A stretch of 64,000 nt of DNA from an uncultured Verrucomicrobiae bacterium (GTDB taxonomy: Bacteria > Verrucomicrobiota > Verrucomicrobiia > Chthoniobacterales > JAFAMB01): assembly GCA_963762565.1 (NCBI GenBank), contig CAVXLD010000005.1:480001-544000 (forward strand), read 5' to 3'. Within the stretch, counting starts at the first letter, position 1. Each line of letters starts with the position of its first letter. The notes under the pieces were generated by a model. That model was not told where the DNA came from. It made no database searches and saw nothing but the letters and a program-made list of their open reading frames with translations. Shown piece after piece: positions 13,532 through 57,630 of this stretch. Position numbers and translations under genes: made by a program.

Positions 13532-13568
13532 ATATATTTTTAGACGCTCAGCCATTCCAAAAGAGTAT
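13532..13568 (+). promoter_or_regulatory. 37-bp box (ATAT-N29-GTAT) upstream of the desaturase
   Basis: One-mismatch member of the repeated box family. Confidence 0.55.
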
Positions 13569-13606
13569 TGGTCGAGATCGGGAGTTTTGGGGGAAGAGTG
13601 CGGTAA

Positions 13607-14590
13607 GTGAGATCGGGCAAAGAACTGATATTGGCGACGAAACCGTATGCGGTCGATTACGCGCTCAAGAGCTGGTGGTACGTACTATCTACTACACTGT
13701 TTTTGGCCATCGCGATTTCTGGGACGCTTTGGAACATCGATCTCGCAGGAAAGATTGTGTGCTCTGTCCTCGCGGGATTGCTGATTCTACGGCTGTTCGT
13801 GATTTATCACGATCAACAACATCAGGCGATCTTGCCCAAATCGAGAGTGGCGAACTTTTTGATGAGCGTCTTCGGGATTCTGGCGCTCAGCCCGACTACT
13901 GTATGGAGCAAATCGCATAATCACCATCATAACCATAACTCCAGGCTTAAAGGTTCCAATATTGGGTCATTCCCAATCATGACCGCGGAGCAGTTTTTGA
14001 AATCATCGAGAGGGGTACGTGCCAAATACCTCTTTATGCGCCATCCAATCACGATCTTGTTTGGTTATGTATTCGTCTTTCTCGGTGGTATGTGCATATG
14101 CCCTTTTCTCGATGATCCTCGAGAGCATTTTGATTGCCTGATTGCACTGGTCCTGCACGCTTTAATTGGAGTACTCCTTACCGTATTCTTCGGTTGGCCG
14201 GCACTGCTTCTGACGCTGATCGTTCCGGTTTTTATTTCGGGCGCTGTCGGGTCTTACCTTTTTTACGCTCAGCACAATTTTCCCAGCGTTTCTTTCGACG
14301 ATGCAGGCGGTTGGACCTATGAAAAAGCAGCGATGCAATCGTCCAGCTTTATGGAAACGGGTCCGATTATGGGCTGGTTCACAGCCAATATCGGTTATCA
14401 CCACATTCATCATCTGAATGCGCGCATCCCCTTCTATCGGTTACCCGAGGTGTTAAGAGATATTCCGGAGTTGCAGACGCCTAAGAAAACATCGCTCAAT
14501 CCTGTCGAAGTTTTCCGTTGTCTGTGTTTGAAAGTCTGGGACGTCCAATCCCAGCGCATGATTTCTCTCGGGGCGCTTCGCAAGGGCTAA
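13607..14590 (+). CDS. Fatty acid desaturase family protein
   Basis: Three His boxes (HDQQH, HNHHH, HHIHH) and TM segments. Confidence 0.92.
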
Positions 14591-15569
14591 CCAGTTTTTC
14601 CTGATCCGTAGGATATCGATCGCCCTGTAGCTTAATCTTCGAGACGGCATGATTAAGGTCGAGCCATTCTTCGGGGGTGAATTCCACGTCTAGCGATCTC
14701 AGATTCTCTTCCAGACGTTCCAGCTTGGTGGTGCCCGGAATGGGAACAATCCAGGGTTTTTGAGCAAGCACCCAGGCAAGCGCGATCTGGGACGAGGTCG
14801 CTCCTTTCCGTTGGCCGATGTCGTTGAGCAAATCCACCAGGATCCGGTTCGCTTTCATCGCCTCTGCGGTGAAGCGAGGCAAGGTGGCCCGGTTGTCGTT
14901 GCCGCTGTCAAATTTCGTGTCTGCGTTCAAAGTGCCGGACAGATACCCTCGGCCGAGCGGGCTGTAAGGAACGAAACCGATGCCGAGTTCTTCGAGTGCC
15001 GGCAAAACCTCCTCTTCCGGCTGTCTCCACATCAAGGAATATTCGCTTTGAACAGCGCTAACCGGCTGGACCGCATGGGCGCGGCGGATCGTTTCAGCGC
15101 CAACCTCGCAAAGACCGAAATGCTTCACCTTGCCTTGCCGAATTAAATCTTTCACGGTCCCTGCTACGTCTTCGATTGGCACGTCGGGATCAAAGCGGTG
15201 TTGGTAAAAGAGATCGATGCTTTCGGATTTGAGCCGTTTGAGAGATTCTTCGGCGACTTGACGGATATGCTCTGGCCGGCTGTCCAAACCGATTGGTTTT
15301 CCGTTCTCGAACTTGGACCCGAACTTCGTGGCAATGACTACTTGCGTGCGGAACGGAGAAAGTGCTTCGCCCACGAGTTCTTCGTTGATGAAAGGGCCGT
15401 AGACTTCTGCCGTATCAAAAAAGGTAATGCCGAGCTCCACTGCCTTGCGGATCAGCGTTATCATGGCATGCCTGTCAGGGGCGGGGCCGCGATGGTAACT
15501 CATGCCCATGCAGCCGAGTCCGACAGCTGAAACCTCCAAGCTGCTGTTTCCAAGCTCGCGCTTTTTCAT
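14496..15569 (-). CDS. Aldo/keto reductase
   Basis: [44 protein letters not shown]. The 3' end overlaps the desaturase by 95 bp. Confidence 0.92.
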
Positions 15570-15592
15570 TTTTTTGATTCCTCTTGTTAGCT

Positions 15593-54804: not shown

Positions 54805-54920
54805 TCTCGGCATTGATTTTGGCGGCACCAGCATTTAGCGCCGCAAATTCTTTGGGGTGAGATAGCCCAAAGCGCTCTGCGGGCCCGCACTTCGTTTTAT
54901 TCGGCTTCGTCACGGTTCCC

Positions 54921-57335
54921 TTAGTTGGCGATCTTTTCGATTGGCGCCAATTTGAACCGGAGGTCATCCTCCTGCCCTCGGTTGATACTCGCGATTCGGG
55001 AGGTTGGGGAGTTGCTGACTGAGCGTGGGCCGTCGGCGGACCATGCTGGGGCTCCTGACCTTTTGGTTTCTCTAACGAGGACCGCTTCGGCTCGATTCAT
55101 CTCGGCCAGCGCGAACTGGAAAGCAAGGGTGGATTCGGCTCCTTGGTTTTGGTTAACCCGATCGGGATGCAAAGCGTCGCGACAGCCACCCGTGCTCGAA
55201 TCGTAGAGTGGCTGCCCGAGATCGTTGCGACCAAGAAACCACTCGAAGCAGCGGCGCGCCGCCCGGTGCCAAGTCGCATCCCGAGTCAGCGAGTACGCTT
55301 CCACGCAGGCGGCAATCATGGCGTGGGCTTCCAACGGTTGCTGATCGAAGCGGGCGCGTTCGTTGCCCCGGGTCCAGAAACCATTGCTGCCGATCGGCGC
55401 GAAATGGCCCGCGTTCGGCCTTTTGCTGCTCCACCAGCCAGCGGAGCGATCGCAATCCAATGTCGACGACGTCACCTCGGGAGGTCCAGTATCCACTGAG
55501 GATCATCGCCTGGGAAAGTTTCGCGTTATCGTAAGTCGCTACAGGCTCAAACCACACCCAATCATCCGAGGAATTATGTCGAAACAGCTCGACCAAGCGG
55601 TTGGTTAGAACTTCGCGCAATTGATTGGCACTTCGATCGCCGGAGAAGGCGCGCAGATATTCCTGAATGGCGAGTAGCGCAAACGCCCAGGCTCTCGGTG
55701 AACTGAAATTCTCGACTGTCGGGAGTCCGCGTTGGAACAAAAGTGCGCAAAGATTACGGTGTCCTTCGTTTTTGGAGCGGCCCAGCGCCGTGCCGGCAGC
55801 CCAAAGCGCGCGTGCGTGGCTGTCCTCCGAACCCTCGCGTTCCAGCCATTGCCGCTGATGGCTCATGAAATTTCGAAAACGGCAGCTTTCTTGATCAAAA
55901 GCGTGCCACAAGAACGCGAGGTAAATGCTCGCCAAGTGTTCGAATTGCTGCTGCGTGACACGACTCGTCGTTTCCTCCAGCAGCAAGGTCAGGATAAAAG
56001 CACGCGCGTTGTCGTCCGTGCAGTAGCCTTCTGCAAAGTTCGGCACGTTGAAGATCGCATGCTGAAAAATGCCGGTGTTATCGGTCATCCGAAGCAGGTG
56101 ATCCAGCTTCAGTGGCGGCAACTGGTAGGGGCGATTGTCCAGGGTTCGAACGGCGAACGCCTTTCGTGGAGGACACGCTCAAACTTGCCCGCGCGCGTTC
56201 GAAGCTTTCCATGTGGCGCTGGGCGACCACCGGCCAGATCATCCCACGTCCCAGTTTCCATGCTCTTTTGCGCGTCGCCGTCATCAGGACCGGATCGGAA
56301 AGAAATCGATTCACCCCCTCAGCGATCGCCTTGCGGATTCGCGAACGGCACCAGGATGCCGCGCTCGTTCGCCAGCAACTCCTTCGCATGCCAGTAGGGT
56401 GTGGAAATGACTGCTTTGCCAGCGCCGAAACGTGTAGGCCAGCGTGCCGGAAGTAATCTGGGATTCGTTGAGATAAGGCGTGATATAGATGTCGGCGGCG
56501 CCAATGAATTCTTTCAATTCCTCCAGCGTCACAAATCGATTGTAGAAGATGACGTTGCGGTGCCACAGCAACGATCCTCCGCGAGGCGCTCCAGCTTGAG
56601 CCGATAGGATCTCTCCGTCGCGCGCGATAAGATTCGGGTGGGTTGCGCCCAGAATGATATAAACCACATTCGGATGTTGCTGCGAGAATCGCCGGCAGCG
56701 CTTCAATGACATACTCGATTCCTTTGTTAGGCGAGAGCAGGCCAAACGTCAGCAGCACGGTTTTTCCCTCCACTCCAAACTGATCTTTGTTAAAATTGGA
56801 TCGATGAAGGGGATGTCCGGTATGCCATGCGGAATCACGTCAATCTTCTCTGGCGCGATGCCATAGATTTCCTCGAGGAAATCGTTTGCCTCGGTCGGCC
56901 ATCACAATGAAGCGGTTCGAGAGTTCATCGAGCTGCTTCATCACCGCCCGCTGATCCGGATTCGGCTCGCGCAGCACGGTGTGCAACGTCGTTACCACCG
57001 GCATATGGACGTCGCGCAAGAGAGCCAGAAGATGGCTGCCGGCAGGCCCGCCGTAGATGCCGAACTCGTGCTGGACCGAAACGACCTCGACGTTGTTGAT
57101 GTTCAGGAAGTCGGCCGCGCGGCGATAGGAATCGAGTTCCTTTTCGTCGATTTCAAATCGGATCCGAGCCGGATAGTCATAGCCTTCAGGTCGATCATTG
57201 ACCGCGCCCACGATGCACTCGGCATTGCGGGAATTCCGCCGCCATCGCTTCGCAGATATCGGAGGTGAAGGTGGCAATGCCGCACTGGCGCGGAAGATGA
57301 TCCCCGAGGAAGGCTATTTGTGTGATGGGCGGCAT
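54921..57335 (-). pseudogene. Second GT4 fusion gene copy with many frameshifts
   Basis: Colinear with 20004-22295 but split over at least 6 ORFs; start MPPITQIAFLGDHLP at 57335. Confidence 0.9.
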
Positions 57336-57593
57336 CGTTTAGTTAGGCGAACGGAGACGGATCCAGCGCAATTGTCATCGGGACCTCACAAATCCGGACA
57401 GTGAATGCCCATGGCCTCGAAGAGAGCGCGTGGGGCGATAGAACCAACCAGAAAAGCAGTGCATTTGTCATACGGCCTTCCCCGCGGTCATTCCTGCCAA
57501 AGTCACGCACGCGCGGTCGAGCTAGCGAATTCATCCCATAGGAGAGCACGAGTCCGGCAGTATGAGTTTTGCCCGGATCCGTTGGCTTCTCCA

Positions 57594-57630
57594 ATACGCT
57601 TACCGAAGTGTTACTGTCGCTTTTGCGTAT
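57594..57630 (-). promoter_or_regulatory. 37-bp box (ATAC-N29-GTAT) upstream of GT4 copy 2
   Basis: Reverse complement reads ATACgcaaaagCGACagtaacaCTTCggtaagcGTATtggagaa. Confidence 0.7.

Follow-up and report, generated by a model that had tools for sequence, protein, structure and literature searches.

A 75-bp promoter-like module precedes stress genes in one lineage of uncultured Verrucomicrobia and is linked to a LysR–XRE gene pair

The operator of OxyR consists of four ATAG-type elements set at steps of 10–11 bp and covers some 37 bp, and promoters read by alternative sigma factors of stress responses carry motifs such as GGAAC-N16-17-CGTT (EcfG) and GTTT-N12-15-GGGTAT (sigB). For LysR-type regulators, PMC11495319 describes a regulatory site near -65 (range -80 to -50) and an activation site, site 2, beside the -35 element, with the motif T-N11-A; BenM uses ATAC-N7-GTAT, and the LysR gene is divergent from a target. 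PMC6628147 places site 2 of BenM directly upstream of the -35. Here we analyse a 37-bp box that recurs in a stretch of 64,000 nucleotides (hereafter the window: positions 480,001 to 544,000 of contig CAVXLD010000005.1, assembly GCA_963762565.1) from an uncultured Verrucomicrobiae bacterium of the order Chthoniobacterales. An earlier note on this DNA had listed 15 copies of the box and read them as the operator of a LysR regulon or, alternatively, as a cis-regulatory RNA. Our analysis shows the box to be the core of a longer unit, which is very probably a promoter/operator module that works at the level of DNA and defines a lineage-specific stress regulon.

The ends of the box, ATAC-N29-GTAT, match perfectly seven times in the window, compared to an expectation of 0.13; none of 100 shuffled sequences reached seven, and all seven lie exactly where the earlier note had placed them. 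R1, a covariance model of sequence alone that rests on 36 genomic copies (alignment A1), recovered 13 of the 15 listed copies at E <= 0.001. The remaining two are not boxes. That at 32765 is a hairpin and T-run directly 3' of groEL, the hairpin being listed by a terminator scan (window 32762-32812 (+), a 13-bp stem of -19.2 kcal/mol, z -4.26, followed by the T-run); that at 13532 is matched neither by an nhmmer profile of the box nor by R1. The 13 modules, together with two further features to which we return below, are as follows.

17306..17379, minus strand: box module, box 17339-17375, perfect ATAC-N29-GTAT ends (R1 26.1 bits, E 9e-07); before a 57-aa open reading frame and a 157-aa gene, 16619-17092.
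18171..18250, minus strand: box module with degenerate 5' end, box start 18204 (R1 41.7 bits); before a gene whose translation is His-rich.
24171..24250, plus strand: box module, box 24180-24216, perfect ends (R1 50.7 bits); before a 111-aa gene, 24284-24619, with no Pfam family.
25670..25745, minus strand: box module, box start 25701 (R1 49.4 bits); before a transglutaminase-like gene, 24796-25629 (Pfam Transglut_core).
26262..26338, plus strand: box module, box start 26272 (R1 52.7 bits); before an lmo0937-like gene, 26361-26507 (Pfam DUF5670).
27454..27532, minus strand: box module, box 27487-27523 (R1 58.7 bits); before a CBS-domain gene, 26879-27301 (Pfam CBS), with a long conserved leader between them (homologs of the leader were found).
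30282..30359, minus strand: weak box module, box start 30313 (R1 21.3 bits, E 3e-05); before a P-type ATPase gene, 27580-30153 (Pfam E1-E2_ATPase).
35609..35687, minus strand: box module, box 35642-35678, perfect ends (R1 61.2 bits); before a 75-aa gene, 35324-35551.
36717..36796, plus strand: box module, box start 36727 (R1 63.1 bits); before a DUF5670 gene (GTG at 36799, 6 nt past the hexamer described below), then an AI-2E transporter gene, 37023-38843.
40056..40135, plus strand: box module, box 40066-40102 (R1 58.6 bits); before a PRC-barrel gene, 40202-40921 (Pfam PRC).
40936..41014, minus strand: box module, box start 40968 (R1 54.3 bits), back to back with the 41032..41106 module; points into the 3' end of the PRC-barrel gene, no target gene called.
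41032..41106, plus strand: box module, box 41038-41074 (R1 44.5 bits); before a co-directional run to about 54804 of SPFH, ackA, xfp, PMI, HAD/PMM, GH130, P-type ATPase, PPK2, His phosphatase and MFS genes (Pfam).
57562..57636, minus strand: box module, box 57594-57630 (R1 63.3 bits); before a 123-aa gene, 56840-57211, with no Pfam family.
38915..38966, minus strand: degenerate remnant of an XRE-type box upstream of the LysR gene, recognised by eye against XRE-type boxes and below the R1 threshold; the XRE gene is missing here.
39067..39969, plus strand: LysR-type regulator gene (Pfam HTH_1 and LysR_substrate, with orthologs in relatives), the candidate box-binding activator.

The box had been described as confined to the space between genes, and this holds elsewhere in the genome: all 36 copies examined fall outside confident gene calls, in DNA of which about 77% is called coding. 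It is also oriented toward genes. In 26 of 35 cases where a confident gene follows, it shares the strand of the box, and several of the other nine are followed by small genes missed by a strict caller (XRE, DUF3309-like microprotein, CsrA). The copy at 40968(-), already singled out as the exception in orientation, is indeed directed at the 3' end of the PRC-barrel gene and is, on the gene map, an orphan or antisense promoter.

Within the genome the copies cluster in two islands. A profile of 12 copies gave 43 nhmmer matches at E <= 10 (36 of them at E < 0.05), of which 14 are in the island of the window (contig C5 of this genome, G000), 18 in a second island, with which contig C3 begins, and eight are scattered; R1 gave 42 matches at E <= 0.01, so that the genome holds 36–42 copies. 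Beyond this genome, R1 has matches in 29 of the 36 further family members, again in islands, compared to one of 24 genomes from 15 other families of the order, a weak match (E 0.009). An exact 20-base pattern searched over one genome for each of 185,579 species returned 34 matches, 30 of them, judged by title, in metagenome-assembled genomes of Verrucomicrobiota, Verrucomicrobiae or Chthoniobacterales. The element is therefore specific to one lineage. Rfam has no match in the window, and within the open literature library that was searched we found no description of the motif, or of a regulon of this kind, for Verrucomicrobia or Chthoniobacterales.

Copies that cluster, in a window with conjugation-type genes at its end, invite the question of whether they are simply a small mobile or repeat element without a regulatory role, akin to a miniature inverted-repeat transposable element or to repetitive extragenic palindromic sequences. 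We find this scarcely credible. The copies have neither terminal inverted repeats nor a hairpin; all are intergenic and before genes, with the downstream gene on the box strand in most; the same gene families carry the box in different genera; and conservation differs from position to position instead of being uniform. The other box-bearing genomes of the family have between 1 and 29 copies each, the LysR–XRE pair described below being the constant core.

The anatomy of the unit was defined from an alignment (A2) of 85 copies drawn from the window, eight other loci of the genome and 29 loci of relatives, about 30 genomes in all; the frequencies that follow refer to these 85 copies. The box proposed earlier is real, its extent of 37 bp is not: the conserved unit is about 75 bp long, from some 8 nt before the box to some 32 nt after it. 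Ahead of the box is a weak T/C-rich stretch with G-2 and C0. The 5' part of the box has A1 T2 A3 at 0.95–1.00 and C4 at 0.74, followed by A8 A9, G11 C12 and A14; the middle keeps G17, A19 A20 C21, C23, T25 C26 G27 A28 and A30 A31; and the 3' end, G34 T35 A36 T37, stands at 0.94–1.00. Positions 1–3, 19–20 and 34–37 are thus 94–100% conserved. Behind the box come G39 G40 A41 G42 A43 A44 (GGAGAA, 0.72–0.87), a loosely conserved spacer, and then G57, C60 (0.83) and a hexamer at positions 61–66 in which G61 (0.86), A62 (0.99) and T66 (0.97) are kept and the positions between are variable; past position 69 there is no conservation. The hexamer was located in 100 of 109 unique copies, at an offset of 23 nt after the box in nearly all and of 24 nt in seven. 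GGAGAA was considered as a Shine-Dalgarno sequence and rejected, because start codons lie anywhere from 36 to more than 200 nt past GTAT.

The arrangement of the box had been read as a 4-7-4-7-4-7-4 series of half-sites. This reading fits the symmetry of the box: the best palindrome centre is box position 19 (score 4.09, compared to 1.86 for the runner-up), and T-N11-A is kept in both 15-bp halves (T2 0.95 and A14 0.86; T24 0.46 and A36 0.98), the second being weak at T24. It fails for the inner half-sites, CAAC and CTTC, which are unlike ATAC and GTAT. The upstream 15-bp site is not a dyad by itself, positions 12–15 being CAAC and not GTAT, and the symmetry exists only across the whole 37 bp. 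Nested at the centre, positions 13–25 form a 13-bp partial palindrome (A13/T25, A14/T24, G17/C21, T18/A20). The motif ATAC-N7-GTAT occurs once in the window, at 53033 inside a His_Phos_1 gene (52625-53263), a count equalled by 18 of 100 shuffles. At one locus elsewhere (L002:1370-1527 (-); loci other than the window are given as L numbers) two boxes stand in tandem, 74 nt apart, before a single 84-aa gene, and the start predicted for the upstream module is the first base of the downstream box.

The hexamer provides a means of placing the box with respect to transcription. A near-invariant A and T four bases apart are the signature of a sigma-70 -10 element, and we read positions 61–66 as a putative -10 on account of this pair with free positions between, the rigid distance to the box, the end of conservation behind the hexamer, the position of anchored gene starts and the hexamers of tRNA promoters. 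Genes whose N-terminus is anchored by Pfam start 6–9 nt past the hexamer and never closer: the DUF5670 gene at window 36799, where profile position 2 aligns to residue 11 of the longer open reading frame, and the DUF3309-like microproteins at L001:17022, L039:9254(-) and L040:10245. Such starts fit leaderless mRNA. The best promoter-like matches before the tRNA genes of the genome combine a strong TTGACn with a GAnnnT-type hexamer (for example TTGACA-16-GATGCT for tRNA-Cys). Box modules have no TTG at the -35 position, which makes their promoters look activator-dependent; a scan of the window for the sigma-70 consensus found 13 sites compared to 8.9 expected, none in sense orientation at a box.

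If these assignments are correct, then each copy would be an activator-dependent promoter module of about 75 bp that acts as DNA. Its operator would be the 37-bp box, with outer half-sites ATAC and GTAT, inner blocks GCAAC and CnTCGA and a GTAAC centre; the box would abut GGAGAA, which is conserved but unlike a standard -35, and a -10 hexamer GAnnyT, preceded by C, would lie at a rigid 23–24 nt past the box. Transcription would begin some 36–39 nt past GTAT, and in some targets this start would be the start codon itself, giving a leaderless mRNA. With the hexamer as -10 the box would extend from about -72 to -36 and its 15-bp halves from about -72 to -58 and from -50 to -36, centred near -65 and -43, and so would coincide with the regulatory site and, beside the -35, the activation site that LysR-type tetramers occupy.

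A different division of the same sequence turns the box itself into the promoter of an alternative sigma factor, of the extracytoplasmic function (ECF) or sigB type: GCAAC (11–15) would be the -35, nGTAT (33–37), 17 nt away, the -10, transcription would start about 7 nt past GTAT, and the downstream part would be a shared leader. The AAC-N17-nGTAT spacing matches the geometry of ECF promoters and RRGTAT resembles the sigB-type -10 consensus, but the bases do not behave accordingly. GCAAC is only moderately kept (A13 0.65, C15 0.66) and the spacer, with GTAAC and CnTCGA, is better conserved than this putative -35, whereas promoters of these types have two conserved blocks, 16–18 nt (ECF) or 12–15 nt (sigB) apart, around an unconserved spacer; the best-kept AAC (19–21) is a mere 12 nt from GTAT, too close for a promoter of the sigma-70 family. 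The near-invariant A62 and T66 and their rigid spacing are left unexplained, and the DUF5670 and microprotein genes would have leaders of about 30 nt without a ribosome site. On the other side, possible leader hairpins begin at the hexamer, and two RNA contigs reach upstream of it, a weak indication. The gene set resembles a general stress regulon, and the genome has 35 genes of the sigma-70 family. An ECF sigma gene lies about 0.5 kb behind a box in island L039, but its orthologs in G000 have no box in front, and there is no sigma, anti-sigma or partner-switching gene in either island of this genome or in three of the four other islands. On balance we consider a sigma factor an unlikely reader of the box, though one that deserves a hearing.

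One specific candidate for such a factor, an RpoD/RpoS-like sigma of 286 aa, was rejected: genomes throughout the order have it, whether they carry the box or not, and a second copy occurs in some box-rich genomes but is lacking in others. The protein (L047:985-1845 (-), on contig C12 of the genome, and L049:982-1845 (-), on C13) is 96–100% identical within the family and still at least 67% identical within the order, far more conserved than the 630-aa RpoD-like gene. The second copy found in some genomes is in one case on an island contig (G023:C43).

The fixed orientation and the position before genes would also suit an RNA element of the 5' leader that regulates in cis, whether AUAC/GUAU closes it or it folds with sequence further downstream, as would the fact that one RNA contig spans a box. 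Folding does not bear this out. The AUAC/GUAU closure proposed in the earlier note finds no support, the helix with two further pairs forming in 72.2% of cells compared to 73.8% in shuffles. RNAalifold found no consensus pair, either in 36 copies (A1) or in 85 (A2), and there is no Rfam match in the window. When five single boxes were folded, that at 57594 reached -8.3 kcal/mol (z -2.1), a point in favour, and the other four ranged from 0 to -6.7 kcal/mol (z +1.1 to -0.5). Other helices fared no better against their controls: an inverted repeat flanking the first 15 bp of the box, compensatory by eye, pairs in 58.5% compared to 57.7% of shuffles, and pairing of the GGAGAA region (the first 12 nt past GTAT) with downstream CT-rich loops gives -8.34 kcal/mol compared to -8.26 kcal/mol with swapped partners. 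No helix tried beats shuffles. Some leaders can form hairpins, but the distance to the start codon varies as described, and we hold an RNA element to be very improbable.

The leaders of CBS-type modules form a case of their own. At window 27370-27486 (-) and at L114-L125 these modules have a conserved leader of about 100 nt in which two mutually exclusive hairpins are possible, the second covering a GGGAGGA word. Hairpins H1 and H2 are 81% and 85% paired among 12 closely related sequences, with no covariation beyond shuffles, and were not accepted as structures.

What RNA evidence exists comes solely from soil metatranscriptomes in the form of assembled contigs, each metatranscriptome having a share of at most 0.16 of the stretch. 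Contig ends lie near boxes at 24260 and 25705, and another contig runs 135 nt upstream of 26354; such contigs cannot show transcript starts, may break at the repeated boxes and may include DNA carry-over. Contigs from near relatives cover two island genes, window 36772-36945 (+) and 35324-35551 (-), with a summed depth, which implies no ranking of expression, of up to 537 at 36840 (run X4) and 134 at 35377 (run X1). The relatives' sequences of these two genes are present in RNA libraries.

If the box promoters require an activator, then the LysR gene of the window (39067-39969) is a candidate for it. It is BenM-like, as had been proposed: the DNA-binding domain aligns to those of CbnR and BenM over residues 1–88, with the recognition helix largely kept. 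Its nearest solved relatives are an unnamed LysR-family regulator (7w06), CbnR (1ixc) and BenM, and in NCBIfam it scores best with the models AlsR, HcaR and CidR, without reaching the cut-off of any (AlsR E 3.6e-67, compared to E 2.5e-20 for OxyR). In six orthologs, 69–90% identical overall, the DNA-binding domain is almost invariant.

The box and this gene occur together. Counting the 36 genomes and the present one, the family has 30 genomes with the box and seven without; a LysR ortholog (E <= 1e-60) is present in 19 of the former and in none of the latter, and in three more box-bearing genomes (G014, G032, G013) the gene is fragmentary at a contig end or has diverged. An ortholog is found in all four other islands annotated. 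Adjoining the LysR gene is a gene of the XRE family (82 aa, HTH_3), itself present in 20 of the 30 box-bearing genomes and in none of the seven others; the pair is adjacent in 16 genomes. Among the genomes in which the gene order is legible, a box lies between divergent LysR and XRE genes in G000-C3, G002, G005, G012 (twice), G015, G016, G020, G023 and G028, so that the order LysR gene, box, divergent target, typical of LysR-type regulators, is found in at least nine genomes; at L042 both genes are co-directional behind one box. Where genomes have only 2–4 boxes, these are at or near the LysR–XRE pair. The C3 island has an intact LysR–box–XRE module and a second box–XRE unit, while in the window the LysR gene is preceded only by the decayed box listed above and the XRE gene is gone. 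With the exception of this remnant, each of the islands examined has, besides the box, the LysR gene and its small XRE neighbour.

The linkage raises the possibility that XRE, alone or with LysR, reads the box, maybe at the central palindrome around GTAAC, and that LysR controls only the adjacent XRE promoter. Every XRE gene examined is preceded by a distinct subtype of the box, which fits autoregulation; its distribution follows that of the box, as just given; the 13-bp partial palindrome is of a size that suits a helix-turn-helix dimer; and the XRE-type boxes beside the LysR gene carry an extra ATAC 11–12 bp upstream, which could be the true LysR site. However, small XRE proteins are usually repressors, whereas box promoters without a -35 seem to need an activator. 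The most conserved bases, the outer ATA and GTAT, are 33 bp apart, farther than a single dimer can span. In two incomplete genomes, G008 and G033, boxes and LysR are present and XRE gave no match, and the island of the window has 13 boxes and LysR with only a remnant of the XRE locus, the two XRE genes being in the other island. XRE as the reader therefore seems to us improbable.

Activation of a stress regulon by LysR is, from sequence, the best reading, and we adopt it tentatively, as a real possibility that falls short of a probable one. On this reading the CbnR/BenM/AlsR-like LysR encoded in the island would bind the box and recruit RNA polymerase, and would thereby switch on 20–40 operons that serve stress and dormancy, among them the phosphoketolase–acetate kinase run and the genes for CsrA, desaturases, P-type and N-type ATPases, small membrane proteins, and CBS, PRC-barrel, Hsp20, Usp and CsbD proteins. 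The small XRE beside LysR, always box-driven, would probably feed back on the system.

Several observations weigh against LysR activation as set out here. XRE co-occurs with the box as tightly as LysR does, and co-occurrence of LysR with the box is expected of any island gene and singles out no regulator. The inner half-sites are unlike ATAC/GTAT and neither 15-bp half has the good dyad symmetry that a LysR regulatory site should show; the GTAAC centre, the A-run at positions 7–9 and GGAGAA are left unexplained if the footprint is a classical LysR one. It is usually an alternative sigma factor that governs a general stress regulon. As to the start of transcription, two RNA contigs extend upstream of the predicted site, the first base of the hexamer is G and not T in 86% of copies, and the hairpin of the CBS-type leader, 81% paired with covariation no greater than in shuffles, has the last base of the hexamer as its first; were it to form in RNA, the start would have to lie further upstream. 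What stands of the earlier interpretation is an oriented element before genes that acts as DNA and defines a stress-gene regulon; its RNA alternative and two of its copies do not.

The genes behind the boxes give the regulon its character. In the window they encode, by Pfam, DUF5670 proteins (twice), CBS, PRC-barrel and transglutaminase-like proteins, a P-type ATPase, the His-rich protein, unnamed small proteins and the SPFH-to-MFS run. Targets in the C3 island are an N-ATPase operon, a P-type ATPase, DUF2630, a DUF3309-like microprotein, an ABC ATPase, a short-chain dehydrogenase/reductase, CsrA and the two XRE genes; elsewhere in the genome they are Hsp20, an AraC/PocR regulator and an amidohydrolase; and relatives add Usp, CsbD, DUF2147, DUF899, Nramp and AI-2E transporters, a transglycosylase-associated family and groES-groEL. 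The same gene families bear the box in different genera. The box-driven genes are a stress or dormancy set. Most of the targets named in the earlier note are retained. Glycosyltransferase GT4 is removed from that list, the gene behind the box at 57594 having no glycosyltransferase domain in Pfam, as are leuC and the desaturase, which belonged to the two false copies; a desaturase does follow a box in a relative (L042).

Some features of these genes are recorded for their own sake. The N-type ATPase operon behind the box in the second island (L001:5234-8647 (-)) is complete, with AtpR, the gene-1 protein and the a, c, alpha, gamma, beta and epsilon subunits. The P-type ATPase at window 49039-51717 (+), within the box-driven SPFH-ackA-xfp run, has a C-terminal DUF2934. 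Two transporter genes are split into adjacent open reading frames, an MFS Sugar_tr gene at window 53349-54089 and 54091-54804 (+) and a P-type ATPase gene at L001:10078-11205 and 11172-12452 (+); a frameshift, pseudogene formation or an error of assembly could account for this. The island of the window is flanked by plasmid- or conjugation-type genes (58276-63850 (-): DUF932, a TraG/TrwB-like coupling protein and a ParA-like ATPase), and an IS200-like Y1 transposase is located at 2168-3202. The stress island may be on or beside an integrative element.

The most far-reaching scenario is one in which a family of abundant uncultured soil Verrucomicrobia would run its stress and dormancy programme without a dedicated sigma factor: a CbnR/BenM-like LysR tetramer and a small Cys-bearing XRE would read a composite 37-bp operator welded to a minimal promoter that lacks a -35, part of the regulon would be leaderless, and the promoter cassette would be copied before new genes within mobile stress islands. 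That all of this should hold at once we regard as doubtful.

The lineage is known from metagenome-assembled genomes only, and the 75-bp signal gives an entry to its gene regulation. In each genome it marks the stress regulon as a whole, among whose products are many small proteins without known function (DUF5670, DUF3309-like, His-rich and unnamed), and points to two candidate regulators that are amenable to work in vitro without cultivation. The module is also a compact, portable operator-promoter of rigid geometry. Were LysR indeed to read the box, the regulon would be among the largest LysR regulons outside OxyR, and a general stress response would have been built on an activator instead of a sigma factor.

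How, then, does the module compare to described systems? Like the alternative-sigma stress promoters of EcfG and sigB, the box is one oriented motif before dozens of small stress genes (CsbD, DUF892, PRC-barrel, Hsp20, Usp) that are clustered in islands. Unlike them, the unit is about 75 bp long and not two short blocks, the spacing of its best blocks is not that of a -35 and -10, and no cognate sigma or anti-sigma is linked.

With the consensus OxyR operator the box shares its length, the 4-7-4-7-4-7-4 layout and the use of one putative tetramer site that would lie just upstream of the -35 of many unlinked stress promoters. It differs in that the half-site words are not the same, in that the LysR of the window is nearer to AlsR, HcaR, CidR, CbnR and BenM, and in that the genes concerned serve general stress, ion transport and carbon overflow, not peroxide defence; moreover, the promoter part is conserved together with the operator.

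The promoters of BenM, CatM and CbnR differ from the box in several respects. Each 15-bp unit of the box has a single ATAC-type half-site, the inner halves being CAAC and CTTC, and its centre is conserved; the box serves 20–40 promoters, where those regulators serve one or two catabolic operons; it shows no third site, and LysR is a candidate binder. There are points in common as well. As at Acinetobacter benA and catB and Cupriavidus cbnA, where site 1 and site 2 precede the -35, there are ATAC/GTAT half-sites with T-N11-A in each 15-bp unit, and two units some 22 bp apart that would end at the -35 position (PMC6628147 and PMC11495319). In both cases the regulator gene adjoins a divergent target, and the DNA-binding domain of the window's LysR aligns to those of these regulators. 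That one regulator site can be common to many promoters is known; what is new is the motif, its length and rigidity, its apparent fusion to a minimal promoter, the LysR–XRE core, the use for general stress, and the lineage in which it is found.

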